In this document: positions 15,944 through 58,366 of the stretch, one piece after another
Position numbering within the stretch: position 1 is the first letter of the stretch
How the letters are laid out: each line of letters opens with the position of its first letter
From: Eledone cirrhosa
Taxonomy: Eukaryota
Direction: 5' to 3'
Assembly: GCA_964016885.1 (NCBI GenBank)
Contig: OZ024743.1
Location: forward strand, 196,726,001 to 196,790,000
DNA length: 64,000 nt
Program-made: the position numbers and the translations under genes
The notes under the pieces: model-generated
Database searches by the model: none
The model's input: only the letters and a program-made list of their open reading frames with translations
What the model was told of the DNA's origin: nothing

Positions 15944-17605
15944 CAGCGGTGTATAATGGATATTGCCATAGGGTATACTCTGTGGTTTGCTTTAAAAAAT
16001 ATGTAAAATCACAAACCTTTTACTGTTGCAGAAGGACTCGATAAAAGTATATCAACATCATTTCCAGCAGCGTGAATTACAGTATTACTAAATAAGCTTT
16101 TTAAAAAAATCATTTACCATTGTAGCTGTATTGTGTTTCAGCCAGCATTAAACGTTTCTATCATATGTAAAGCAAAAATCGAGGGCTGTAAACAACAGCT
16201 GATTTTGTTAAATTAACGTCCTCTAAACTTTGACCAGGCTTAATATTTGTTTATATATTTCTAAGTCTGTATCATTAGATTTGAAAACAGGCGGTAGATT
16301 GGTAGATTCGAGAAAATGCCTTGCGAAATTTAATTCAAATCACGCCGAGGTCGACTCCGACTTTCATCTTTTCAGATGAATTACGTAACTGTCTTTATCC
16401 CATTGCAGAAACTAATTAGTTGGAGTGAAAATTTAAGTAAGAAAAAAATTTTTTTTAAATTTTTTTTAAAAAAATATTTTTTTATTTTACGTCCTTTATA
16501 TTATTGTTCTGCATTCTCCTGCATTGAACCACCTAGGTACTATGACATAACCTGTGTATTTGCTGGCATGGGCGTGCATCTGTGCGCTTATGTTAGTTGA
16601 TATATTAAATTATCTATATTTATCTCCAAATCACTGATTTGTCGAGCAAACTTGTCAAAACCACTTCTAAAAAAATTTTTTTTGGGGTGTTAGTAGGCGT
16701 CAGTCATCTTACCATCCCATTCCTTCTAACTAGCCTCTGTGTCACGTGATTGATTCTTTAGAATCGGCCATTTGACTTGAAGCAGTGAGAATTTCGGTAC
16801 ATAGAAATTCAGTCCTCGCAAGCTGTTCGATCTACCGAATTATTATTATTTTTATATGAGCCGCCAGTGTCCGCGCATTGCCTGGAGACTTAACTGAGAA
16901 TAGACTTCCTGATGACGCAATGAATTCTCGACAGTTGAATTACGTAACTGTCTTTATCCCATTGCAGAAACTAATTAGTTGGAGTGAAAATTTAAGTAAG
17001 AAAAAAATTAAATTTTTTTTAAAAAAATATTTTTTTATTTTACGTCCTTTATATTATTGTTCTGCATTCTCCTGCATTGAACCACCTAGGTACTATGACA
17101 TAACCTGTGTATTTGCTGGCATGGGCGTGCATCTGTGCGCTTATGTTAGTTGATATATTAAATTATCTATATTTATCTCCAAATCACTGATTTGTCGAGC
17201 AAACTTGTCAAAACCACTTCTAAAAAAATTTTTTTTGGGGTGTTAGTAGGCGTCAGTCATCTTACCATCCCATTCCTTCTAACTAGCCTCTGTGTCACGT
17301 GATTGATTCTTTAGAATCGGCCATTTGACTTGAAGCAGTGAGAATTTCGGTACATAGAAATTCAGTCCTCGCAAGCTGTTCGATCTACCGAATTATTATT
17401 ATTTTTATATGAGCCGCCAGTGTCCGCGCATTGCCTGGAGACTTAACTGAGAATAGACTTCCTGATGACGCAATGAATTCTCGACAGTTGAATTACGTAA
17501 CTGTCTTTATCCCATTGCAGAAACTAATTAGTTGGAGTGAAAATTTAAGTAAGAAAAAAATTTTTTTTAAATTTTTTTTAAAAAAATATTTTTTTATTTT
17601 ACGTC

Positions 17606-17654
<49 letters not shown>

Positions 17655-17823
17655 ATATATAGAGAGAAACACACAAATACATGCGGACACATACATATAC
17701 ATGAATATATCCACACATATCCCTGAGTTAGTGGTGCCAACCTATATATATATAGGTATGATATATCTTATTACTAATTATATCTAATGTTTCTTCTCTC
17801 TTCATAATGTACTATATATACAT

Positions 17824-17869
<46 letters not shown>

Positions 17870-18301
17870 CAGCGGTGTATAATGGATATTGCCATAGGGT
17901 ATACTCTGTGGTTTGCTTTAAAAAATATGTAAAATCACAAACCTTTTACTGTTGCAGAAGGACTCGATAAAAGTATATCAACATCATTTCCAGCAGCGTG
18001 AATTACAGTATTACTAAATAAGCTTTTTAAAAAAATCATTTACCATTGTAGCTGTATTGTGTTTCAGCCAGCATTAAACGTTTCTATCATATGTAAAGCA
18101 AAAATCGAGGGCTGTAAACAACAGCTGATTTTGTTAAATTAACGTCCTCTAAACTTTGACCAGGCTTAATATTTGTTTATATATTTCTAAGTCTGTATCA
18201 TTAGATTTGAAAACAGGCGGTAGATTGGTAGATTCGAGAAAATGCCTTGCGAAATTTAATTCAAATCACGCCGAGGTCGACTCCGACTTTCATCTTTTCA
18301 G
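14445..18301 (+). repeat. Near-identical tandem duplication of ~1.93 kb (14445-16375 and 16377-18301)
   Basis: Array units plus unique flank are repeated; 6-bp deletion near 17008; the junction interrupts a SINE. Confidence 0.9.
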
Positions 18302-18870: not shown

Positions 18871-19452
18871 ATATTTCGTTTCTGAATTTGTTTAGCAAGA
18901 TTCTTTATCTGAAATCGTGTGTTGAAACCGATATTGTTATACTTTGGGAGGGTCATGTTGCCAATAAGAAACACACGCACCAGTTGCTTTCACTTCAATT
19001 TATTATATATTTATAAATTTACAAATCTACAAATTTATAAATTTCTGGTTGGTTGGTTGGTTCCACAACCAGATAGTTGTTTATATATAGTCATAGTCCT
19101 TTCGTCGCACACTCTGTGACCTCTTCAGTGACTGGGGATTCCTTTCTTTGTTTCTGTGCCTTTCCTTTCTTCTGTCCTACGCCATTTTGTTTCTGTGTGT
19201 GTCAAATGGCGTAGGACAGAAGAAAGGAAAGGCACAGAAACAAAGAAAGGAATCCCCAGTCACTGAAGAGGTCACAGAGTGTGTGACGAAAGGACTATGA
19301 CTATATATAAACAACTATCTGGTTGTGGAACCAACCAACCAACCAGAAATTTATAAATTTGTAGATTTGTAAATTTATAAATATATAATAAATTGAAGTG
19401 AAAGCAACTGGTGCGTGTGTTTCTTATTGGCAACATGACCCTCCCAAAGTAT

Positions 19453-19459
<7 letters not shown>
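18871..19459. mobile_element. Fold-back HHR-bearing element (~265-bp inverted arms)
   Basis: 18932-19196 is the reverse complement of 19204-19458; same family at 59176-59890. Confidence 0.88.
19258..19302 (+). ncRNA. Minimal type I hammerhead (mirror copy at 19089-19133 minus)
   Basis: AGTCA CTGAAGA G GTCAC agagtgt GTGAC GAAAGGACTA TGACT. Confidence 0.8.
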
Positions 19460-20714: not shown

Positions 20715-20719
<5 letters not shown>

Positions 20720-21319
20720 TGATGAGGGACTCATTTTATAACATGTTATCCATGTGCAACCATGCAGTATTCTTCTCCCCCATATTTTTCATATATTTAC
20801 CTAAACTGCGATTCTGTGTTTCTCTCTTTCTCTCTTACTGCTCCCTCGTTCTCTCTGTTTCTCTTACTTTCTTTCGTCCCCTCTGTCAAGTCAGTTAACA
20901 CTTTCTCTCTACTGACCTCTTCCTCGCACTCCCACTCACTCAGTCCCTGTTTCTCCCCTTCTTACTTCCTCCCGTTCGCTTCGAAAACGATTTTCCTTCT
21001 TTCTAACATCCGATTCACTAGCGAAAGGTCTGTTTCTAACTCGCACATATATTCACACAGCTTATGCTGAAAGAATAACCATGTTGCTTGTGTTTATTTC
21101 CATCTTCGGTTAGCTTTCCCCTGTGTTGTTTACTTGTCTCACTCGCTTAACGCGTTTCTATTGTCCTAATAACTTATTTTAGTTATTATCGCTCCAACGT
21201 GAGGTATATGATTTTTAATGCGATGAAATACCAATGATCGTTGGCAAATCACTGATGAGGGACTCATTTTATAACATGTTATCCATGTGCAACCATGCAG
21301 TATTCTTCTCCCCCATATT

Positions 21320-21325
<6 letters not shown>
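20715..21325 (+). mobile_element. 533-bp retrozyme-like unit with ~80-bp terminal direct repeat, carrying the permuted hammerhead
   Basis: 20715-20794 repeated at 21248-21327; flanked by (TA)n. Confidence 0.85.
21163..21263 (+). ncRNA. Candidate non-circularly permuted hammerhead ribozyme
   Basis: GTCC TAATAAC..GTTATTA TCGC t CCAACG tga GGTAT A TGATTT ttaat GCGA T GAA ATACC aatgat CGTTGG c AAATCA CTGATGA G GGAC. Confidence 0.75.
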
Positions 21326-21364
<39 letters not shown>

Positions 21365-21375
21365 TATAAATGTAT

Positions 21376-21433
<58 letters not shown>

Positions 21434-21566
21434 GTGAGGTTTTTTTTACAAAATGAAAAATAACCGAGGTGTCCTACACGAGTGGAAGTATAAAGAAAAA
21501 GGGATGAAATCGAAAATGCAACTGAAGTCTTATTTTTAAAAAAAATATATATATATTTATTTGGTT

Positions 21567-21604
21567 CCTTTACCGGTTTCGCAGTTCTTCTGCTTTTCAA
21601 AAGG
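21567..21604 (-). ncRNA. Minimal hammerhead, U3-A8 core variant
   Basis: CCTT TTGAAAA GCAG aagaa CTGC GAAACCGGTA AAGG. Confidence 0.75.
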
Positions 21605-22635
21605 TGAGTTGAGATGGAGGGTCTGTGGTTTTTCTCACATCTGGTTGGTCTCTAAATGTTACTTGTTTTATATGGAAAAAGTGGCTCGAAAACCAGGTTT
21701 TTCGAGAAGTAATTTGATTGGTTTGTCAATAATTATAATAAATTTCGCGCCAGTTCGCGTTACAATAGTTCTTCAAATAAGAGAGGGGGGGGGGGGGTTG
21801 TCACAGGTTGTTTTTTCATATATGAGTGTTTGAATTTCTTTTTACTTGAAAAAATGAGGCTCACGAAGGCTTTTTTTTGGTTGGTTATAAATGAAATTTG
21901 GCTGTCACGTGAACAAGTTTTCATTACATTTTTGCGCCCTTATTTGGAAAACTATTCTGTAGTCTTTATAGTGAATGTTATGACAATGGAGAGATAGTGG
22001 TCAAGGGAAAAGGGATTGGGAGAAATGTTCTGGTTCAGTGAATATGGCCAGCTGTCAGAGTTCAGGTGTCAGACTTCAGATTTTCTATTGAGACTGAAGA
22101 TATGTTTATTTGTGTGCTTGTGTGTGTGTATATGTGTGTGTGTGTATGTGTGTATTGGAAGATGATTCTATTAGTAGAGATGGGGGAGGGAGTTGTGTGT
22201 GTGTGTATATGGGTGTTATGTGTGTGTGTGCGAGTATGTTAGATGGAGAGAATATATATTTTGTGTGTGTGTATATATATATGTGTGTAGGAAAGTGGTT
22301 CTATTAGTAGAAATGGGGAGGGTGTTGTAGGTGTGGGGGTTGTTATGTGTGTGTATGGGTGTTATGTGTGTGGGAGTATGGTTAGCATGTTAAGATGAAG
22401 AGAATATATATATATATATATATTGTGTGTGTGTGTATGTGTGTGTGTAGGAAAATGATTCCTTTAGTAGGAATATTTTTGAATGAACATATTTTCCTGA
22501 CTTTTTCGTGTTTGCTGTTGTATTGCCAGTGCAAACGTATGTTTAAGGTTTGTTTAGTTCGGGTTTTTATTTTCTAAAGTAGAAGGTGTTATGTGTGTGT
22601 GTGTATGTCATATTGTGGTGTTGACATAATGTATA

Positions 22636-24852
22636 TTAAACCTTATTTAATGTTGGTCTATATTTTTGAATAAACATATTTTCCTTATTTATTCGCATTT
22701 GTTCTGTTGTATTGTTAGCGCAAAGGTAAAATGGGAAGACTTGGAATTTGGGTGTCTTATTACTTGCGCAAATGTCTAGATGTGCACTTAGTGGTATCTG
22801 TCTCGTGGTTGGATCTCGTAATTGTTGGCGATGAACTGTCATTCTGTTTCTGAGTGTGAGTTTAGTTTGTCCTATATAATCTTCATTGCATCCTTTACAT
22901 TTAATGGCATAAATTAGATTTTTTGATGAGCAAGTGAAGTGATTTTTTACAGTAAAATTTTGTCCTGATTTAAATGTATACGTGTTGCCTTCAATGAGGT
23001 GAGTGCAGGTTCCACAATTAGAGCGACCACATTTTTTGATACTTGGTTGTGGGTTTGTGGTAGGTAATTTGGCATTGGTGAGTAATGTTTTCAGTGATTT
23101 TGGTTGTCTTTTGCTTTTGATTATTTTGTGTGTTTCAAGGGCTTTTTTTCATTCTTGGGTTTTGTTTTAGTAGTGGGATGTTATTGTGAATAGTTTTGTA
23201 AGCTTCCGCATTTCTTGGGTTGTGTGTTGAGATATATGATAGAATATTGGACGTACCTTGAATTTGTTTCTGTTTCCGTAATTCATCAATGCCTATTGCT
23301 TTAGCCCTTTCTATTCCATTATTTATTAGTAATAGTGGGTACTCTCTCTCAAGTAGAATTTCCTTTAATTCTTGAAGTCTTTTATTTCGCGTTTCATAAT
23401 TGGAGACAATTGTGCAAATTCTTCTTGCTAGGTTAAAAGGAATGTTCGTCTTCGTGTGCTTTGGATGGTTGGAGGTGAATAGCAGATATTGTTTGGAATC
23501 TGTTGGTTTGTAGTGTATGTCAGTTTCGATATTTGTGTCTTTTTTGTGATTAAGATGTCCAGAAATGGGAGTTGATCTTGGCTGTATTCCATTGTGAATT
23601 GGATGTGGTTATTGATGCCGTTTATTAAGTTTTTGAAATCCTTCAGTTGGTCGAGTGTGTGGGACCAAAGAATGAGGCAATCATCCAAGTAGCGTTTCCA
23701 ATTCTCTGATAAATATTTGTGGAAGTTCAATCCGTATTTTGATTTGGACTGTTCATATATCTGGACTTCTAAGTATGCCATGACTAAGTTGGCATAAGTT
23801 GGAGCGGCTTTTGTGCCCATCGCAGTCCCCGATATTTGCTTGTAAGTATTGCCATCGAAATCAAAAAAGTTGTTCTGTAGGATGAATTTTAATCCCTCGG
23901 TGATGAAGCTTTTTTCTATTCTGTCAGGTATCTCATTGGGATATTTCTCTAGCCAGAATCCTATTGCTTCTAGTCCGTATTGGTGTGGGATCGTTGTGTA
24001 GAGATTCACTACATCGAAAGACACAATAATAGTGTCGTTGTTGACATGTTTGGGGAGGTGGTTTAAGAGGTCCAGATCGTCTCTTACAAGGCTTGGTATG
24101 TGTTTCAGTATTGGTTTCAGTAGTATGTCTATAAAGTTGCTCAATCTGTGTGTTTCACATTGTGGGCCCGCTACAATTGGTCTTAATTTAAGGTCTGTGG
24201 GGTATTGTGTGTTCACGCAGGCTGAGGTGGATTGTTTACAGGCATCGTTGATTATTTTACATTTGTGGATCTTCGGAAGTCCGTAAAGGTTGCTGGTTTT
24301 GTATTCAAAATTTGTTAAATAATCGCGTTCCTTTTTAGTTAGGTCTTCCTGGTATCGATAAATCAGTGTGTTTAATTTGGTCATTATTTTTGATTGCTGG
24401 TAGTTTTTTACTCTTTCATAGTAATTAGCATTTTGTAAGAGAGAGAACATAGAATTTTTATATTTTTCAGCCTCCATAATGACAACAGTACTTCCCTTGT
24501 CCGCTTCCTTAATTACAATGTCCGGATTGTTTTTTAGTTCATGGATAATCTCCCATTCCCTTCGACTTGTGTTGGGTTTGGGTTTAGGTTGCGGTAGTTC
24601 ATGGTATGGGAAGGTAGCTATGTGGTCACAAAATTTGTCCAGAACTCTGTTTCTACCTTTTGTTGGGTTGTAGCTGCTTTTATTCCGTACAATTGATTCG
24701 TCGTTATTCTCCTTGTCAAAGAATTCCTCTGTGTGACGTAATTTTCTACAGAAGTGTGAGATATCGTCATTTATCTCGTTGGGGTTAGGATATTGTGGTG
24801 TTGGTGTGAATTTCAGACCTTTGGAGAGAATTTTTACTTGTTGGGCTGAGAG
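22636..24852 (-). pseudogene. PLE RT + GIY-YIG, frameshifted
   Basis: LSKGLKFTP, IKEADKGS, YGLPKIHK, RPIV, GTAMGT, WKRYLDD; NLIYAIKCKGCNEDYIGQT at about 22865-22920. Confidence 0.9.
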
Positions 24853-25170
24853 ATTTATTATAATTATTGACAAACCAATCAAATTACTTCTCGAAAAACC
24901 TGGTTTTCGAGCCACTTTTTCCATATAAAACAAGTAACATTTAGAGACCAACCAGATGTGAGAAAAACCACAGACCCTCCATCTCAACTCACCTTTTGAA
25001 AAGCAGAAGAACTGCGAAACCGGTAACCAAATAAATATATATATATTTAAAAAAAAAATAAGACTTCAGTTGCATTTTCGATTTCATCCCTTTTTCTTTA
25101 TATATATATATATATATATATTAGTATAAATGTATACATATATATATATATATTAGTATAAATGTATACA

Positions 25171-25254
<84 letters not shown>

Positions 25255-25514: not shown

Positions 25515-28500
25515 TCTATAAAAGGCAGATTGTTGTTGTTGTGTGTGTGCGCATGTTCAATGTTTATACATTTGCACAATTTCAAACCGATTCGACTTAA
25601 AGTCTGGAAGAATGTTGTAAATAGTCTAACTTAGGTCAACAACTATTTATTTATTTCAACCTCGCCCACAATTACGGAAATGATCGATAAAACTAAATAC
25701 ATGACGCTTTACCCCTCAAATACAATCTGATTTATACTACCTAACTCCCATACATACTGCCACCTTCTCTTATATACGCTTATAAACCCACTCCTTAATA
25801 ATTTCACACAATTACATTTTGTGTATAACATATTTACACGTTTAGTGAGTGAAAAAAAAACACATAGGGATTTTGGGCCAAACAACTTCACATTGCTGCA
25901 TATTTACACGTTTATTGAGTGAAAAAAAAAACCACATAGGGATTTTTGGCCAAACAACTTCACATTGCTGACAGAAGCGCGCTTTAAACAAACTGTGAGT
26001 TATTTATTTGCCTCTGTAAGAATGTTGTCAATGGTCTAACTTAGGTCAACGACTATTTATTTATTTCAAAATCACCCACAATTACGGAAATAATTTCCTC
26101 TCTCTACTCCACATAAAAATCGAAAAAAAAAAATACATGCTCACACACAATTATATTTTGTGTATAACATATTTACACGTTTATTGAGTGAAAAAAAAAA
26201 AAATATTTATTTTTGGCCAAACAACTTCAAATTGCTGACAGAAACGCGCTTTCAACAAACTGTGAGTTATTTATTTGCCGTTCGTACTCCCATTTTTTCC
26301 CCTGCGGAACGCAGACAGTTTTCAGCCTTATACTTTCAAAGGCAATTTTGCTGTAGAAGTAACTTTCACCCTTTCTTTTTCACATAAAAGGCCACCTAAA
26401 AAGAGAAGTCGCCTCGGTCGCCATACCGCGTCAGCGGCGGCGAAGAGGGCGATTACAGCAAACGAGCCCCCGAGAAAACTGCTTTAAGACTTTCACAGAA
26501 CGCCTTACGTTCAGCGGAATGCAGAGCTGCTGGAAGTTTTCAACAACGCACCGCATACCTAGCCAAGATGGCTTCATACGACGCCTCGAGACGTACTGCG
26601 ATGTGCGATTCAGAGCGGGCGATACGTCATTCCAAAAAAAACGCTTCTATTGCTACTTCCAGGGCTTCAGAGGGCCCGGAACAAAGGGCGACTCGCCTGA
26701 ATAGAAACGCTGCTGCTACTGCTGCTTCTAGGGCGTCAGAGGGCCCGGAACAAAGGGCGGCTCGACTGAATAGAAACGCTGCGGCTACTGCTGCTTCCAG
26801 GGATTTGGAAGGTTTGGAACGGCGGGCGAATCGCATTGCTAGGAACGCTGCGGCTATGACTGCTTCCATGGCTTCTGAAGATGCAGACGGGCGCTCCATT
26901 AGGATTGCAAGGGTGGCTTCTGCTACTGCTGCGAGAGCTTCCCATGACCCACAGGAGCAACATTCTACGTTGGAGCGGAACAGTCGACGACAAGAAGCTG
27001 CCCGCGGTGTGACGAGCCACGACAGCCCATACTGGCACCTACGGGCTTTCAAGTATGAGCCCAACGTTAACTACTCGATGTGTGCCGACATAAATATAAG
27101 GGAAATGCGCTTCAATTGCAAAATCTGCAATGCTAAAAAGTGGGCTGAGGAGCCACCTGCAATGTGCTGCTTAAACGGTAAGGTCAGCTTTCCCCCTCTT
27201 GGGGAACCACTAGAGCCTTTGAAGGAACTACTTACTGGTTCTACCTCAAGGTCATCCAAATTCCTTCAACTCATCAGGAAGTACAATTGTGCGTTTCAAA
27301 TGACTTCTTTCGGGGCTAACGTTGTCAGAGAAAGTGGTTGGATGCCTACTTTGAAGGTCCAAGGACAGGTGTACCATCTTATTGGGTCGCTCCAGCCACT
27401 ACAAAATTACAAGCCTTCGTTCCTTCAAATTTACTTCATTTCTAAATACAGTAGGTAAGTTGATGCGCGGTTCGGCGTTATTCCAACACCTGCAAACACT
27501 GACGTTGACACTTTTGAAAGGGACGTGCTGCTCGGTCTTCAAAACTTGCTTCATGAGCACAACAGTTATATTCGCAGTTTCAAATACGCATTGGAAACAA
27601 ATCCTTCACCAAACTTCACCATTGTCATCGATGCTGACAAAAGACTTTCTGGGGAGCACGCACGCCGTTATAACACTCTTTCGTGCAATGAAGTGGCCGT
27701 AGTTATCCATGGTGAACAGCACAATAAGCGAGACATAGTTCTTCAAAGTTGTGACAGTGGTCTTCGACGTATTAATGAGACGCATCGTTCATACGACGCC
27801 CTGCAGTATCCCCTTCTTTTTGCATACGGAGAAGACGGGTACCATTTCGGCATTCCTCAGCGCAAACCAAACGAGCCCACTGCTGCGACATCTAAAACTG
27901 TTTCATGCATGGCTTTATACTCATACCGCTTCATGACGAGGCCTAACGATTTCAGCACCCTGCACAGGTCACGGGAACTGTTTCACCAGTTTGCAGTTGA
28001 CATGGCTGTAAAGATGGAGTCGGAGAGACTGTGCTTCATAAAATTGAATCAAAAGCAGCTGCGCTCAGACTCCTACATCCATTTGCGTGACGGCATCAGG
28101 AATGACACTGACCCCCGGAACATCGGCAAAATGTGCATTCTCCCCTCAACCTATACGGGTGGGGGGGGCGGGCGGTACTTGCACGAGCGAACACAGGACG
28201 CTATGACGTTCGTTTGGCATTATGGGCGCCCCGATTAATTCATCATGTTTACGTGTAACCCCAAGTGGGTTGAGGTTACGCGTGAACTTATCCCAGGGCA
28301 GCAGTACTGCCATCGGCATGATATTATTGCCAGGGTTTTCAGGCAGAAGCTGGCTAAGCTAATTGATCTAATAAAAAAAGGGAAGGTTTTCGGGCCTGTT
28401 AGGTGCCACATGTATACTGTTGAGTGGCAGAAGAGAGGGTTGCCACACGCGCACATTTTGGTTTGGTTGGTCACCAAAATAGACCCTACAGTTATAGATG

Positions 28501-31500
28501 ACGTCATCGCAGCGGAAATACCGGACCCCGTTGTTGACCGGCAGCTGTACGATATTGTGAAGGCACACATGGTGCACGGTCCATGCGGTCCCGGTTTTCA
28601 AAAGTTCTCTTCATGCCACAAGGACCATGTGTGCACTAAACGATACCCAAAGAGGTTTGTTGAGGAGACCCAGACCGGCGACGACGGATACCCACTGTAC
28701 AGACGAAGGCAGCCTGAGAACGGTGGATTCACTATGACGTTACGGGGTCATCAAGTTGATAATAGGTGGGTGGTCCCGTACTGTCCATTTCTGATGAAAA
28801 CTTTCAACGCTCATATAAATGTGTTCTGTCATTCAGTGAAGTCGATAAAGTACATATGTCAATATGTTAACAAGGGTTCCGACGCTGCCATGTTCGGCCT
28901 TCAAAACGACAATAGCAGGGACGAGGTCTCGGAGTACTTGGCAGGTCGATATATCAGCACTGGTGAAGCTTTGTGGCGGATATTCGGGTTTCCACTTCAC
29001 CAAAGGCACCCCACCATCATACAACTAGCCGTTCATTTGGAAAACGGCCAGCGGGCTTACTTTACTGAACAGACTGCTGCTCATTTGGCGGCCAATCCAA
29101 AAGAAACAACTTTGACTGTTTTTTTTACGCTTTGCCAACTTGACACATTTGCAAAAACACTTTCATATCCTCAGGTCCCGTCCTACTACGTGTGGTCAAA
29201 CAACACTTGGGTGCGTAGGAAGTTAGGTCAGGATGTTGAAGGACATCCTAGTGTTAAGTTTGACAGTTGTCTAAGAAGAGTGTACACTGTACCTCCCAAC
29301 CAGCTTGAGTGTTATCACCTGCGCCTTCTCCTCCATGAGGTTTTTGGCCCACAAATCTTTCGAGACATAAGAACTGTTGAGGGTGAATTATGTGATACTT
29401 TCCGGGAAGCCTGCTTTAGGCGTGGCCTTTTGGAGGATGATTCACAATGGGGCGCCACTATGGCAGAGGGCGTTTTGTTAAAATCTCCTAAAAGACTAAG
29501 ATCGCTTTTCGCTATTCTACTCCTATGGTGCGACTTGGGTGATCCGGCCTCTTTATGGCTTAGTTACAAAGATTATATGTTCCTGCGTCACGCTCAGTTG
29601 CTAAACCCATCGATGGAGGTCGGGTACAGTGACCTCATTTACAACAGGGCGCTGCTTGAAATCGAAGGTACTGTTCTCGATATGGTCGGTTGTGCGTTGG
29701 CTGTGTATCGCCTACTTTCAACAAACCGGGAAGGCGCAAACACTCTGTCTTCGGATTTGCTGCGTGAGACATCTTATAATGTTGACGAGCTTGCCCAGAA
29801 CATAGCGGAGAATGATCCAAAGCACCTTCCAGAACAGAAATTCGCTTACAACTCCGTTGTTAATTCTGTCCGGGGCAAAGCTGGGGGTATTCTTTTCCTG
29901 GACGCTCCTGGGGGGACTGGGAAAACTTTTGTCACCAAATTAATATTAGCTGAGATTAGGCGAACAGAAGACATTCCTTAGCTGTGGCATCATCTGGAAT
30001 TGCGGCTACTTTGTTGCCGGGCGGCAGAACAGCTCACTCCTATTTCAAGCTGCCGCTTGACTTAGCGAAGACTGAGACACCCACTTGCAACATCAGTAAG
30101 AGCTCCGATCAGGCAGAAGTGTTCAGACGATGCAAGCTTATCGTTTGGGACGAATGAACGATGGCCCACAGAGGTGCTCTTGAGGCGCTCGATAGAACTC
30201 TGAGAGACATCAAAGACTCTACGGCTCCAATGGGAGATATAACACTTCTTTCAGGAGACTTCAGGCAAACGCTTCCCGTTATTCCCAAGGGGATTAGAGC
30301 TGATGCAGTACGTGCGTGTCTTAAGTCATCCGCATTGTGGCCCCTGGTGAAGACTCTGAAACTTGACACTAACGTGCGTGCTCATATGCGAGGTGATATC
30401 AAATCAGCAGCATTTTCTCACACCCTCCTTGCACTTGGCGAAGGCAAAACGCCCGGGGATGAAAAGGGTAATATTGCCATCGACTCACTTTGTACCATTG
30501 TTAGTACGCCTTCTGATCTCAGGGATGCAGTGTTCCCAGATCTCCAAGCAAATTATCAGAATATGGATTGGCTTGCCCAAAGGGCTATTCTGGCCCCGAG
30601 GAATAAAACTGTTAACCATATTAATGATCAAATGCTAAAACTCATTCCTGGGATGGCTACGTATATAAGTCTATCGATAGAACTCCTGACCCCGAGGACG
30701 TCATCAACTATTCAATAGAGGTACTAAATTCCTTTGAGCCCCCCGGATTACCCCCACACATTTTGAAACTTAAAGTTGGTGCCCCTATAATGCTCATTCT
30801 AAATTTGGTTCCGCCGAAACAATGCAATGGCACGCGTTTGGTCGTTAAGTCCTTAGCTCCCAATCTGATTGAGGCCACGATAATCACAGGGTGCGGTTGG
30901 GGCAAGGTTGTGCTCATACCGAGGATGCATCTTTTCCCATCAGGAGCAGACCTACCTTTCACATTTTGGAGGTCCCAGTTCCCGGTCAGGCCATGCTTCG
31001 CAATATCAATTAACAAAGCGCAGGGACAAACACTGTCTGTCGCGGTAATACATTAGGGGGAGCCGTGTTTCTCTCATGGTCAGCTTTACGTTGGCTGCTC
31101 GCGTGTCGGCAGCAAGAGTGATTATTTCGCGTTCGTTCCGCAAGGAAAAACGAAAAACATTGTGTACAAGGAGATTTTATAGGATTACCTCGATTCCTAA
31201 TTTTATAACTTTTTTATTTTTTTTATTTTTTGCCTTTTCGTGAGTACTTTCTAAGTAGGTTAACCTTCACTGCAGTGCACTGGACACTCCCCACCATCTG
31301 CCGTACAAAGGCTGATTCTCGCGGCGTTACAAAGCTTCATTGCAACTCCGACCCTACTCAAATATCAGCTGTTGCTCCTCACCAACCCCCGTTTGGTGGG
31401 CCTCGGAGGACCGCGGACAGGTTAGTATTTCACCTCCGTACGACTCTCAAAGGGTCAACAATGCTTTAATGACGGGATTTACATTTTTAGGCGGTTCCCT

Positions 31501-36559: not shown

Positions 36560-38480
36560 AGGGAACCAGATGGACCATAACGCACCAGAGTAATCAATAC
36601 TTAGGGTAGTAGAGTGGGAAATAGGAAAGAGTATGACCCTGACGGCAGAGCCCAAGCCGTTTCGACGGCTATTTCTGAACTAAATTAGAATTTTTAGCCT
36701 GGTGAATAAATAGCCGAACTTGTCAAGGGGGTACTTCCTTATATGAGAATATTGCAGTTGTCAAGAGGATTGGTTAAAATTTGTTGTAAACACAAATAAG
36801 TCTATCATGGCATTGGTGGTAGGTAGGGGTGGCTGAACTTGCCTGTAGGACAATAGGGGAGTGAATGGAGCTGATACAAAATTAAAGGGGTTTAACACGT
36901 CTGCTATAAGTAGTTAGTAAAACATATTTGGCCAATTCTATCTTAAAATTACAGGGGTGGGGGAACTGATGCTAGAGAGGCCCGATGGGCTGCATCGGGG
37001 TAGGCGAAAGGGGAAAAGCAGACGAGGAAGAAAATAGGGGGTGGAAGGAAGTGATAGGATGAGACAGGGGGAAGAAGGAGACAAAGAGGAAAAGAAAAGA
37101 AAAGAGATACATCTACCTAAGTAAGCTGGGGTTTCCCCTAACTTATTCGGCAAGTGGGGGGTATCAGCCCTTGTCTACCCACCCGGGTCATTATGGGGTT
37201 TGAGTGCGAGGTAAGTCCTACGCAATCTGTGTTTGCATGCGGTTACCAGTTCGTCTTTCTTGTTTAGGAATTGGTCCTTCGAAAACAACATTTGTAATGT
37301 TTTCTCCGAGCATAAGTTACACGAACGGCGTCCTCCCGTGTAAGAGTTAGCTCTGGACAGTAAGTTCCAAGTGAGATTGTAGGTTATATTATTATCTTGG
37401 AGGTCCCAGATGTGGCCCGAAAGTGTAGTGGCATGTCGCCGGACCGGGTTTCGGAGAGTATGTCGGTGTTGGTAGAGCCGGGTCTTGAAGTCACACGCGG
37501 TTAATCCTATATGAGCTTTGTTGGAGGTGTCCGTCCTCACGTTGCACTGGTAGATCACGTTACGTTCTCGGCATTTGTTGTTGAGAGGGCACGTAGATCT
37601 ATCAGGGCAGTTACACCTGGTCGGCTCTCCACTGATATCTAGGTTATTTCTTCCATAGGAGTTGAGTTTGTTGTTGTTTGAGGAGACGATGTTATGTGCG
37701 AAGTTAGGTGTGGTGTTGTAGGAGAGTTTGATGGTGTTTTTGTTGATTATGTTGTGGTAGCGTGTTGTAGTGGGAAGTGTTTTTCGAGGAGTCTAAAGAA
37801 GATTTTCCCGATCGGTGTTGCCACCTCGGCATTATGGGAAGGATTGAACCACGTTACGTTGCGTGTGCGGCGGTGTCGCCTGCTGATTCCGCTAAGGGAA
37901 GCTGGATAAAAGGATATTTCCTCCCGGAAGCTACTCCGCTTGAGGGCCTGGTTGTAATGATGCGCGTGTTCGTCGAATATCTGCTCATTAGCGGACAAAC
38001 GAGATATGCGGGGGGAGATGTTTTTAACCAGGTTATTAGTGATGTTTCTAGGATGGTTAGAGCGGCGGTGGATGTAGTGCAGGTTGTCGTTTGGTTTCCT
38101 GTATGGGTAGTACAGATCATTTTCGAGGTTAAGGGTAACGTCCAGGAAATTGACTCGGGTTAGGGACGTTTGTAGGGTGATTTTAAATCCACGGTCCCGG
38201 AAGAAGTTGATTAGTTGTTTACGGACCCGATCTGTACTACTGGGGTTGTACCCTTTGAGGGTGAGGAGCCCATCATGCCGGTACAATCCACCGCCGAATG
38301 CAGGAAACATTTCGGTGAGTTTAAATAGTAGGAATAATCCTATAAGATCTGTGACCTCGGCCGAATCCGTCGCGCCCATACTGACGTTGAAGGGGGAGTC
38401 GGGATCTCTCTTTATCCACTTGGAGTTGTCGAAAAGTAGGAAACGGCTTGAGCTCTGCCGTCGGGGTCATATTTTTCCTA
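36560..38480 (-). mobile_element. Penelope-like element of a different clade (possibly Nematis-like), 5'-truncated, with inverted pseudo-LTR stub at 38440-38480
   Basis: MGATDSAEVTDLIG, GLYRHDGL, VNFLDVTL, VIYQC..HIGLT..FKTR, CNLC.EK; HHR-like motif at 36651-36729. Confidence 0.85.
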
Positions 38481-39227: not shown

Positions 39228-40026
39228 ATAAAAGACGTAAAATAAGAAAATTTAAAAAAATTTTTTTTAAATTAACTTACTTACTAAAATTTTCACTCCA
39301 ATTAGTAAGTAAGTTAATTTTTTTAAATTTTTTTTTTAATTTTCTTATTTTACGTCTTTTATATTATTGTTCTGCATCCTCCTGCATTGAACCACCTAGG
39401 TACTATGACATAACCTGTGTATTTGCTGGCATTAGCGTACATCTGTGCGCTTATGTTAGTAGATATATTAAATTATCTATATTTATCTCCAAATCACTGA
39501 TTTGTCGAGCAAACCTGCCAAAACCACTACTAAATTTTTGGTGTGTTAGTAGGCGTCTGTCATCTTACCATCCCACTCCTGCCGACTAGCCTCAGTGTCA
39601 CGTGATTGATTCTTTAGAATCGGCCATTTGACCAGTGGCAGCGAGATTTTCAGTACTTGGAATCCAGTCCCCGATAGCTGTTCCATTTACCGAATTATTA
39701 TTATTTTTATATGAGTCCCCAGTGTCCGCGCATTGCCTGGAGACTTGGCTGAGAATAGACCTCCCTGATGACGCAATGAAATTCTCAACAGTTCATTACG
39801 TAACTGTCTTTATCCCATTGCAGAAACTAATTAGTTGGAGTGAAAATTTTAGTAAGTAAGTTAATTTTTTTAAATTTTTTTTTAAATTTTCTTATTTTAC
39901 GTCTTTTATATTATTGTTCTCCATCCTCCTGCATTGAACCACCTAGGTACTATGACATAACCTGTGTATTTGCTGGCATTAGCGTACATCTGTGCGCTTA
40001 TGTTAGTAGATATATTAAATTATCTA
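39228..40026 (+). mobile_element. Diverged copy of the 559-bp retrozyme family with a short inverted arm
   Basis: Homologous to the 14-kb array; HHR at 39761-39840; 39228-39300 inverted. Confidence 0.88.
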
Positions 40027-40059
40027 TATATATATATATATATATATATACATACATAT

Positions 40060-40190
<131 letters not shown>

Positions 40191-40717
40191 AATTAGAATT
40201 GGTGCTCTGAAATAGCCATATATATATGAATGTATATATAGTGTATTTTGCAATACATTTTATGCTTAATTAAAAGCATTTTGAAGACCTTATGCTATTG
40301 TTTTAGAGTAGTGACAGACTCACTTACTTTAATTTCAGCAAACAGGGGGAGATAAAGCTGACAAGGCCTTGTTTCTGCATTTATTGATGCTTATCAAAGC
40401 CAACTACTCCTCCCGTCCGCTGAAATTACGGATGTTATGTTCTTATAGAATTCTAGTAAATAATCGGCAACCGCTCTGTATAATCAGTTCCTGATTATTT
40501 ACTAGAATTCTATAAGAACATAACATTCTTAATTTCAGCGGACGGGAGGAGTAGTTGGCTTTGATAAGCATCAATAAATGCAGAAACAAGGCCTTGTCAG
40601 CTTTATCTCCCCCTGTTTGCTGAAATTAAAGTAAGTGAGTCTGTCACTACTCTAAAACAATAGCATAAGGTCTTCAAAATGCTTTTAATTAAGCATAAAG
40701 TGTATTGCAAAATACAC

Positions 40718-40722
<5 letters not shown>
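40191..40722. mobile_element. Fold-back HHR-bearing element
   Basis: About 40236-40460 is the reverse complement of about 40495-40722; shorter relative at 47335-47550. Confidence 0.88.
40557..40602 (+). ncRNA. Type I hammerhead, U3-A8 core variant (mirror copy at 40356-40401 minus)
   Basis: GGCT TTGATAA GCAT caataa ATGC a GAAACAAGGCCTTGT C AGCT. Confidence 0.78.
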
Positions 40723-40811
<89 letters not shown>

Positions 40812-42455: not shown

Positions 42456-43008
42456 AATGATTAAACTATTAAATTATCAATTAAACATTTAATCAAATTT
42501 ATTAATTAAACCTTAGATAAAGTTTTTCAACCTATCATTATAATGAATCCTGCTATTATTCATCCACGCTATATTCGTTTCTTCGCTTCTTCTCTCCTGT
42601 CACGTAAACAAAATTACGCTATTATTGTCCTTATAACTAATATTCTCTCTCACTTAAATATAGTCACGTTTACTCTCTCCCACTGGCAAAAATATATATA
42701 AACTATTCCTTTTCTCTTTCACTTTCTTTTTCCCCTCTTCCAACGGTTTAATTTAAATATACTGTTATTTAAACCTTTCCGACACCAATTTAAAAACTAA
42801 ATCAACAATAAATCTAATATCTCCACTATCCAGCAAGCTCCAACCGGTAAGGTTGCATTTTTTCAGGGTATGTCAATATTTATTTATAAAACTAATCTGT
42901 ATTATATTTTATCTGATGAAAGCGCACCATAATCTACCTTGGTGGCCCTTGAAATATGTATAATGAAATATATATGGTTTTATAAATATAGTTTCCATTT
43001 GTTAATAT

Positions 43009-43910
<902 letters not shown>

Positions 43911-43911
43911 C

Positions 43912-46188
<2,277 letters not shown>

Positions 46189-57016: not shown

Positions 57017-57660
57017 ATATAAAACATGAGAAGAAAGAAGAATACTGCGTGGTTTGCACATGGGTTACATATGATAAAAATAGTCCTTAGTCAGTGATTT
57101 TCCAACCATCATTGGTATTTCATCGCATTAAAAATCAGATACCTCAGGTTGGTGCGAACAATAACTAAAAAAAGTTATTGGGACCAGAATTCGCGTAAGG
57201 CGAGGGGGACAAGTAAACAACATAGAAGGATAAAAGCAAACCGAAGATAGGAAAATAAACAAGCAACATGGTTGTCCGGTCAGCATAAGCTGGGTGGATT
57301 TCATGAGCGAGAGGGGTACAGACCGTGTTGATGTGTGTGAGATGTGAGCAAGAAGAGACCCACACAAGCCAAACGGGAGGTAGTGAGAAGGGTAGAAACA
57401 GAGAGTGAGTCAGTGGAAGTGTGAGGAAGAGGTCAGTCGAGAGAAAGTGTAACTGATAGAGGGGGCGAAAGAAGGTGAGAGAAACAGAGAGAGCGGGGAA
57501 GCAGTAAGGGAGAAACAGACAAACGCAGCCGAGGTAAATATATATAAAAAACAGGAGAAGAAAGAAGAATACTGCGTGGTTTGCACATGGGTTACATATG
57601 ATAAAAATAGTCCTTCGTCAGTGATTTTCCAACCATCATTGGTATTTCATCGCATTAAAA

Positions 57661-57664
<4 letters not shown>
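57017..57664 (-). mobile_element. 527-bp retrozyme-like unit with ~120-bp terminal direct repeat, permuted-HHR family
   Basis: 57020-57137 repeated at 57546-57664; full motif at 57083-57184. Confidence 0.85.
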
Positions 57665-57719
<55 letters not shown>

Positions 57720-58264: not shown

Positions 58265-58366
58265 GTCCCTCATCAGTGATTTGCCAACCATCATTGGTAT
58301 TTCATCGCATTAAAAATCAGATACCTCAGGTTGGTGCGAGCAATAACTAAAATAAGTTATTGGGAC
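58265..58366 (-). ncRNA. Candidate non-circularly permuted hammerhead ribozyme (best copy; element about 58205-58545)
   Basis: GTCC CAATAAC..GTTATTG c TCGCA CCAACC tga GGTAT C TGATTT ttaa TGCGA T GAA ATACC aatgat GGTTGG c AAATCA CTGATGA G GGAC. Confidence 0.78.

Follow-up and report, generated by a model that had tools for sequence, protein, structure and literature searches.

The window analysed here, a stretch of 64,000 nucleotides of Eledone cirrhosa DNA (contig OZ024743.1), contains four near-complete copies of a putative hammerhead ribozyme, at 21163-21263 and 12197-12297 on the plus strand and at 58265-58366 and 57083-57184 on the minus strand, along with truncated ones. Reading the 21-kb copy from its 5' side, the first strand of helix A precedes a 7-bp hairpin; the 5' strands of stem II and then of helix P come next, and three bases lead into block S. 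A 4-nt linker separates block S from block G, after which six bases, the strand completing P, block C, a single base and the strand completing helix A follow in turn. All letters of the hammerhead core are present, namely, CUGANGA (21252-21258), GAAA (21225-21228) and the UH triplet (21207-21208). The features of this repeat family in the window are as follows.

20715-21332, plus strand: whole insertion, flanked by (TA)n tracts and made up of 1.16 units of a non-coding 533-bp repeat, with a truncated 5' end and a fixed 3' end
20764-20809, plus strand: second small stem, covarying, whose loop carries the U-rich CAUAU end site; whole only in the read-through unit, found by a pattern-guided search and less strongly supported
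21163-21166, plus strand: helix A 5' strand, pairing with 21260-21263; closes the ribozyme domain and connects the rest of the unit
21167-21188, plus strand: 7-bp hairpin with a U-rich loop, inserted in the stem II junction; subfamily majorities differ by a double change at 4 of its 7 pairs
21189-21193, plus strand: detached stem II 5' strand, pairing with 21219-21223; one double change (subfamily E)
21194-21199, plus strand: 5' strand of P, the tertiary helix between stems I and II, pairing with 21239-21244; two-sided changes in 5 of 6 pairs, 96% paired
21200-21202, plus strand: non-bulged strand of the k-turn-like loop (3n, G2n, A1n)
21203-21214, plus strand: block S, with the stem III 3' strand, U16.1 (21207), H17 (21208) and the stem I 3' strand (21209-21214)
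21219-21232, plus strand: block G, with the stem II 3' strand, 11.1 (21224), GAAA (21225-21228) and the stem III 5' strand
21233-21244, plus strand: bulged strand of the k-turn-like loop (3-nt bulge, G1b, A2b, 3b) and P helix 3' strand
21246-21263, plus strand: block C, with the stem I 5' strand, CUGAUGA (21252-21258), 10.1 (21259) and the helix A 3' strand
12197-12297, plus strand: copy of subfamily B in a unit of about 620 bp, with a G-C-rich stem I
57083-57184, minus strand: copy of subfamily A3, core broken at G8
57609-57668, minus strand: the upstream one of the tandem units in the 57-kb insertion, whose 5' truncation falls at or beside the predicted cut, (TA)n microhomology blurring the point
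58265-58366, minus strand: copy of subfamily A in a 5'-truncated unit (to about 58540)

After CUGANGA, at most one pair of stem II can form; upstream of block S, positions 21189-21193 make up the rest of the strand. P and stem III would be nested, with stems I and II crossing them as two pseudoknots of 5-6 bp, so short that no knot should be needed. By likeness to the hammerhead core, cleavage is predicted between 21208 and 21209. The distal pair of stem II is U.U in the subfamily of the 21-kb copy, and the outer pair of helix A is G-C, A-U or U-A, depending on the subfamily. The G8 change that breaks the core of the full 57-kb copy was absent from the original prediction, which was made from the window alone.

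Genomic copies and covariation of the fold

A pattern search of the 3.0-Gb assembly found the S, G and C blocks all kept at 10,651 places, compared to none for the reversed control. Narrower, partly overlapping patterns yielded 4,865 (control, 1), 763 (control, 3) and 1,804 (control, 14) places. Among the 40 matches scored, the 121-base motif of the 21-kb copy has at least 4 other places of 100% identity. The motif of the 12-kb copy is 100% identical over 116 nt at at least 26 places among the 41 matches listed, indicating that the retrozyme family has spread recently.

We built an alignment from 290 genomic loci, which gave 371 core matches, 267 of them distinct. An identity filter against hand-picked representatives kept 192 of the 267 and dropped 75 as truncated or unrelated; 179 of the filtered copies were distinct over the motif, and a maximum of 22 per subfamily left 143 rows. 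Subfamily F (6 rows, of other lengths) was excluded, so that the final alignment has 137 rows in nine subfamilies, with the window copy replacing one genomic row and with subfamilies E and G represented by just 6 and 3 rows. The invariance of CUGANGA and GAAA is no evidence, since both were demanded by the search patterns. The G and A of the k-turn were absent from the earlier patterns and are part of the 1,804-place pattern, which was the source of most subfamily E rows.

On the named structure, 92.2% of the 4,635 cells are paired in the 137 copies. The original prediction had staked its permuted hammerhead fold on pair-preserving double changes being enriched in a larger alignment. This enrichment was found: two-sided changes occur in 24 of 34 pairs across the nine subfamilies, and the fold is upheld. 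The covariation score was 0.349, versus 0.179 in shuffles (none of 500 as high) and 0.03-0.09 with slid partners; a measure of further pair types in the 137 copies did not exceed the shuffles (115 of 500). The strongest covariation, overlooked by that prediction, is in stem I, where all 6 pairs show two-sided changes and 94.6% are paired. Two-sided changes were seen in 2 of 5 pairs of stem II and 3 of 5 of stem III, and stems I to III are 90-96% paired. Helix A covariation is understated because subfamily B is one base shorter. Since the copies are related, we compared differences between subfamily majorities with private mutations. The former comprise 21 double, 3 single-kept and 7 broken changes (31 in all), versus 7, 34 and 146, respectively, among 187 private mutations (Fisher p about 4e-16, for changes that are not independent in related copies). 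The covariation is thus real and much stronger than the window alone shows.

The letters that had suggested this covariation were read correctly in the window. Helix P is CCAACG/CGTTGG at 21 kb and CCAACC/GGTTGG in the 57-, 58- and 12-kb copies, and the hairpin is TAATAAC/GTTATTA at 21 kb and CAATAAC/GTTATTG at 57 and 58 kb. The 10.1-11.1 pair is likewise G.U (21 and 58 kb), A-U (57 kb) or G-C (12 kb), as predicted, but genome-wide a strict pair is not kept: it is standard in 116 of 137 copies, with four pair types, and mismatched in 21. C.A or A.A recurs at this position in subfamilies C and D, which counts against our main explanation. By eye, in subfamily F and in several Naiads it is the upstream strand that provides the partner of 11.1. 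The predicted A/C variation at H17 was confirmed (A in 88 and C in 46 of the 137 copies) and is polymorphic within two subfamilies, but the claim that this position is never G was too strict, with G in 2 copies and U in 1. Position N7 varies between U (111) and C (23), as proposed, and is also A in 3 of the 137. U16.1 is present in 133 of 137 copies and H17 is not G in 135 of 137; both positions lay outside the search patterns.

A k-turn-like loop between stem III and helix P

The loop joining stem III to P consists of a 3-nt bulge followed by G.A and A.G, which is the standard k-turn sequence. G1b.A1n is found in all 9 subfamily majorities, A2b.G2n in 7 of 9 and A2b.U2n in 2 of 9. A1n, G1b and A2b are each at least 90% conserved in the 137-row alignment. 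Positions 3b.3n and 2n vary, as they do among the natural k-turns covered from PMC5061560, in which the variant with U at 2n corresponds to Kt-23. The loop is k-turn-like by its sequence, and a kinked fold is predicted. Box C/D-type and U4 k-turns fold upon L7Ae binding, according to the same part of PMC5061560. We found no report of a k-turn inside a hammerhead in the literature on hammerheads, kink-turns and retrotransposons, a search confined mostly to papers outside subscription.

Subfamily F, which lies outside the alignment, has Watson-Crick pairs at the k-turn positions. In the five loci viewed, out of 1,306 first-look candidates, it has a longer hairpin and, where the k-turn would be, a simple bulge of 3 nt, and its 10.1-11.1 pair is a canonical G-C with the partner from the upstream strand.

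The carrier unit and its insertion pattern

The 533-bp period noted in the original prediction was confirmed, with 20715-20799 and 21248-21332 differing at 1 of 85 bases. The terminal direct repeat proposed with it is, however, the overlap of a 1.16-unit partial tandem; such overlaps are of variable length, and an LTR-type element was ruled out. Units measure 527-534 bp (A group), 610-626 bp (B), about 540 bp (D and G), 644 bp (C) and 753 bp (F); they are pyrimidine-rich and low in GC and, outside F, 57-89% alike. Each dispersed tandem unit carries one ribozyme, and partial tandems have periods of 527-534 and 610-626. No shared open reading frame was found, the longest Met-ORFs of 33-169 amino acids not being common to the units. 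No ORF with N-terminal GIY-YIG and reverse transcriptase (RT) was present in or beside the units examined, which makes the element non-autonomous.

Where copies meet (TA)n, they end at an internal U-rich CAUAU site, of which there are one or two; in the A group, this end lies 64 nt beyond the core. The stem at 20764-20809 is a candidate reverse-transcription start site. The 5' ends fall anywhere in the unit, and many copies have inverted neighbours. The (TA)n targets, partial tandems, 5' truncation and inversion are the signature of Penelope-like transposition, and the retrozyme-like carrier suggested by the original prediction is upheld by this insertion pattern with its fixed 3' ends, by the conserved fold and by the copy number.

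We then used the 5' breakpoints of 178 copies. The break lies 6-90 nt upstream of GAAA in 49, and 129 extend further. Of the 49 breaks, 5 fall within 3 nt of the predicted cut, a mild enrichment (post hoc p=0.03) that gives a weak hint of cutting. The 7-9-nt cluster of breakpoints is explained by (TA)n microhomology. Breaks within 20 nt of GAAA were seen in only 17 of 178 copies; these few stops, together with the 129 copies that run beyond the stretch, indicate that most templates had either not been cut or been rejoined, which counts against our main explanation. A ligation scar at H17 was ruled out, since adjacent units showed 1 difference at this position among 37 pairs versus 1.19 expected.

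Unit folding is weak, at -63 to -148 kcal/mol for 527-753 nt. Single copies have modest folding z-scores of -1.4 to -2.7, and the nested helices alone were recovered, with a program that does not model pseudoknots. Rfam gave no match in the window at the gathering threshold; it holds no model of S-G-C order.

Comparison with known hammerheads and retrozymes

The SGC form is one of the non-circular permutations of the hammerhead blocks and was found in environmental RNA and DNA; hammerheads of types SGC and CSG have been shown to cut in vitro (Eckert et al. 2023, PMC10085705). The ribozyme described here shares with these types the block order S-G-C, the full core, a short linker between stems I and II (4 nt, versus typically 3 in the published forms) and a helix that connects stems I and II at their free sides. 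It differs from type SGC in several respects. The ring is opened within stem II, whose 5' strand lies upstream of block S and not behind CUGANGA, so that the Block C assumption of PMC10085705 is broken. Moreover, a hairpin junction is inserted, and the k-turn-like loop lies between stem III and the tertiary helix. In the alignments of the Eckert supplement, which were searched for a few terms, neither Octopus nor k-turn gave a match.

Animal non-LTR retrozymes, as far as described in the covered part of Cervera and de la Pena 2020 (PMC7229834), are similarly non-coding, low-GC dispersed tandems with one hammerhead each. A dependence of such retrozymes on Penelope-like elements (PLEs) is proposed there and by Li, Clavereau and Pollet in a 2026 preprint (10.64898/2026.07.22.740005). 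Those retrozymes have type I hammerheads in units of 150-450 bp, whereas the units here are 527-644 bp (one 753) with a reversed-order hammerhead, and (TA)n targeting is strict here. In the type I hammerhead of non-LTR retrozymes, the order is C-G-S; here it is S-G-C. The circles of PMC7229834, in the same covered part, are highly self-paired, whereas the present unit is weakly so, which counts against our main explanation. The unit resembles a retrozyme and an SGC hammerhead, yet fails one defining feature of each. Both surveys used just type I/III descriptors (the preprint, type I models only), as far as the covered part of PMC7229834 tells. In the literature on permuted hammerheads, octopus, Naiads and mollusc retrozymes, mostly that outside subscription, we found no report of an S-G-C hammerhead in an animal genome.

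Reversed-order hammerheads in Naiad elements

In the part of Craig et al. 2021 (PMC8557442) covered here, Naiad PLEs are reported to lack canonical hammerheads, some being labelled "HHR_core" or "HHR_half_core" and fitting no descriptor. By eye, and as a count that is not exhaustive, about 18 of the 54 published Naiad consensus sequences in its supplement carry a reversed-order hammerhead close to the 3' end. The reversed block order would explain why no descriptor fitted. In the Octopus bimaculoides and O. vulgaris entries, both the layout and the 8-nt hairpin loop are those seen in the window; a standard k-turn is present too, and the helix letters differ. Three Acropora Naiads, one from Morbakka, one from Clytia and that of Eulimnadia have a detached stem II strand without a k-turn, and the motifs of Euprymna and Beroe are weak. 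All 8 nematode entries are clean type CSG, four of their names being deduced from file order. No reversed-order hammerhead was seen in the crab entry, and the spider and ostracod ends carry CUGACGA motifs that do not fit the fold; all of these readings of the supplement were made by eye.

The unit also shares (TA)n targeting, partial tandems, 5' truncation and inverted 5' copies with the Naiads as described in that part of PMC8557442, traits that PLE clades other than Naiad have as well. The ends of the Octopus Naiad consensus sequences in the supplement share the ribozyme layout and a similar core-to-end distance; the unit differs in having no ORF. The design is shared with Naiad 3' ends and was probably taken from there. 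The S-G-C topology, the k-turn-like loop and the Naiad link all go beyond the original prediction.

The genome contains 96 Naiad matches, all short or broken (longest open frame, 233 amino acids) and with copies 70-91% alike. These remnants resemble the published Octopus Naiads. No intact Naiad helper was found with an RT-motif pattern (0 matches) or a second pattern (3 decayed matches), searches that a distant Naiad family could escape. Neither ten 10-kb stretches upstream of divergent copies nor two more contained a coding element. The Naiads are thus old and broken versus the young retrozyme copies, which counts against our main explanation.

In one old Naiad family (six loci), the end, located 0.6-1.4 kb beyond the RT match, is a remnant in S-G-C order whose stem II forms a local hairpin. 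In the core of this remnant, UUGAUAA, U3 and A8 replace C3 and G8 in a pair-keeping swap, and the copies are only about 75% alike. At four loci, older copies of the motif match the published Octopus Naiads in their stem II letters; the 10 kb upstream of three of these copies contained no RT.

Proposed mechanism and alternatives

We consider it likely that the repeat is a non-autonomous, PLE-mobilised retrozyme whose non-circularly permuted S-G-C hammerhead is predicted to cut and to circularise the RNA. In a transcript of tandem units, stems I to III and P would form a double pseudoknot, in which the k-turn would bend back the arm of stem III and P and let P clamp stems I and II at their tips. 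The RNA would be cut after U16.1-H17 (21208/21209), yielding a monomer of roughly 530 nt whose ends would be held by four helices and rejoined into a circle. The endonuclease/reverse transcriptase of a PLE may then nick (TA)n, start at the internal U-rich CAUAU site 3' of the core and copy one to three rounds. Internal priming has been shown for one PLE, according to the covered part of PMC11167929.

It is possible, but unlikely, that the fold is real and serves mainly as a binding or start signal for a helper protein, with slow or protein-dependent cutting, so that the template is an uncut linear multimer and no circle forms. Most copies read through the predicted cut site, and the weak 10.1-11.1 pair would also suit such a role, as would U.U at 3b.3n, which is characteristic of snoRNA-like, protein-bound k-turns. 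The hammerhead of an anole PLE points in the same direction and against our main explanation, because its cleavage depends on protein and it is dispensable for insertion in vitro (PMC11167929, in the part covered). However, all catalytic positions, including an H17 other than G, are kept across subfamilies with units 57-89% alike, and a pure binding site would need none of them.

That the active form is instead a domain-swapped dimer, in which S and G of one unit meet the detached stem II strand and C of its neighbour, appears improbable. Lunse and colleagues reportedly found in 2017 that minimal PLE hammerheads act as dimers, which would speak for this arrangement. The plain 3-nt bulge of subfamily F and, by eye, the near-continuous III-P helix of the Eulimnadia Naiad in the supplement would be hard to bend back in a monomer. 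On the other hand, a monomer would need an element such as the k-turn-like loop, which is present in nine subfamilies and in two Octopus Naiads, and every unit is closed by its own helix A.

A neutral AT-rich satellite or SINE, with a motif and pairings that arose by chance or were inherited without selection, is hardly credible: modest z-scores, Rfam silence and non-independent changes in related subfamilies would fit it, but the folding program does not model pseudoknots and Rfam has no S-G-C model, the ratio of double to broken changes between subfamilies (21 to 7), set against that among private changes (7 to 146), contradicts it, and the same layout occurs with unrelated letters in other phyla among the supplement entries covered.

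Returning to the cutting and circularising retrozyme, we consider more likely than not a wider reading in which much of the Naiad clade would normally carry a reversed-order hammerhead as its 3' ribozyme, as CSG in nematodes and in the detached-stem-II form in cnidarians, a crustacean and cephalopods. The window family would then be active, k-turn-assisted and present in more than 10,000 copies, having outlived its Naiad parent via another helper. If so, non-circularly permuted ribozymes, hitherto placed on anonymous contigs, would gain a home in animal genomes, where thousands of natural variants could be studied. The apparent absence of hammerheads in Naiads would be explained, which bears on the universality of a 3' ribozyme in PLEs. 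A hammerhead opened at the stem II junction is excluded by current descriptors, so that genome-wide ribozyme counts are likely too low. A k-turn within a hammerhead, if confirmed, would be a natural handle for protein control of cleavage.

Neighbouring elements in the window

Several other mobile elements were observed in the window. A Neptune-like PLE with a CxxC linker lies at 22640-25245 (minus strand), with a single frame break and an inverted copy at 21427-21746; it may belong to a family that targets (TA)n and was active recently. No sequence shared with the adjoining repeat was seen, and we take it as a co-target of the same (TA)n. Other Penelope-like RT/GIY-YIG elements are present at 7440-8957 (plus; Neptune-like, CxxC linker), 5574-7349 (minus) and 37175-38466 (minus). 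Minimal hammerhead cores in canonical order and of the usual Penelope type (CUGANGA, 4-bp stem II, GAAA) were found at 3854 (minus) and 47738 (plus), both missed by Rfam at its gathering threshold.

A Helitron Rep-helicase remnant, whose N-terminal portion carries 69-bp repeats, spans 26400-30718 (plus). An array of 559-bp tandem repeats at 12841-18301, which includes an inverted block and a duplication of 1.9 kb, contains CUGAUGA and has a diverged copy at 39304-40168. Palindromic or fold-back elements occupy (TA)n at 12550-12680, 18932-19459, 40123-40809 and 42858-44141, and the fold-back element at 12.55 kb recurs beside retrozyme copies at two other genomic loci. At another locus, a 466-bp repeat and its mirror copies have GAAA upstream of CUGAUGA at a similar spacing, with no evident S block.
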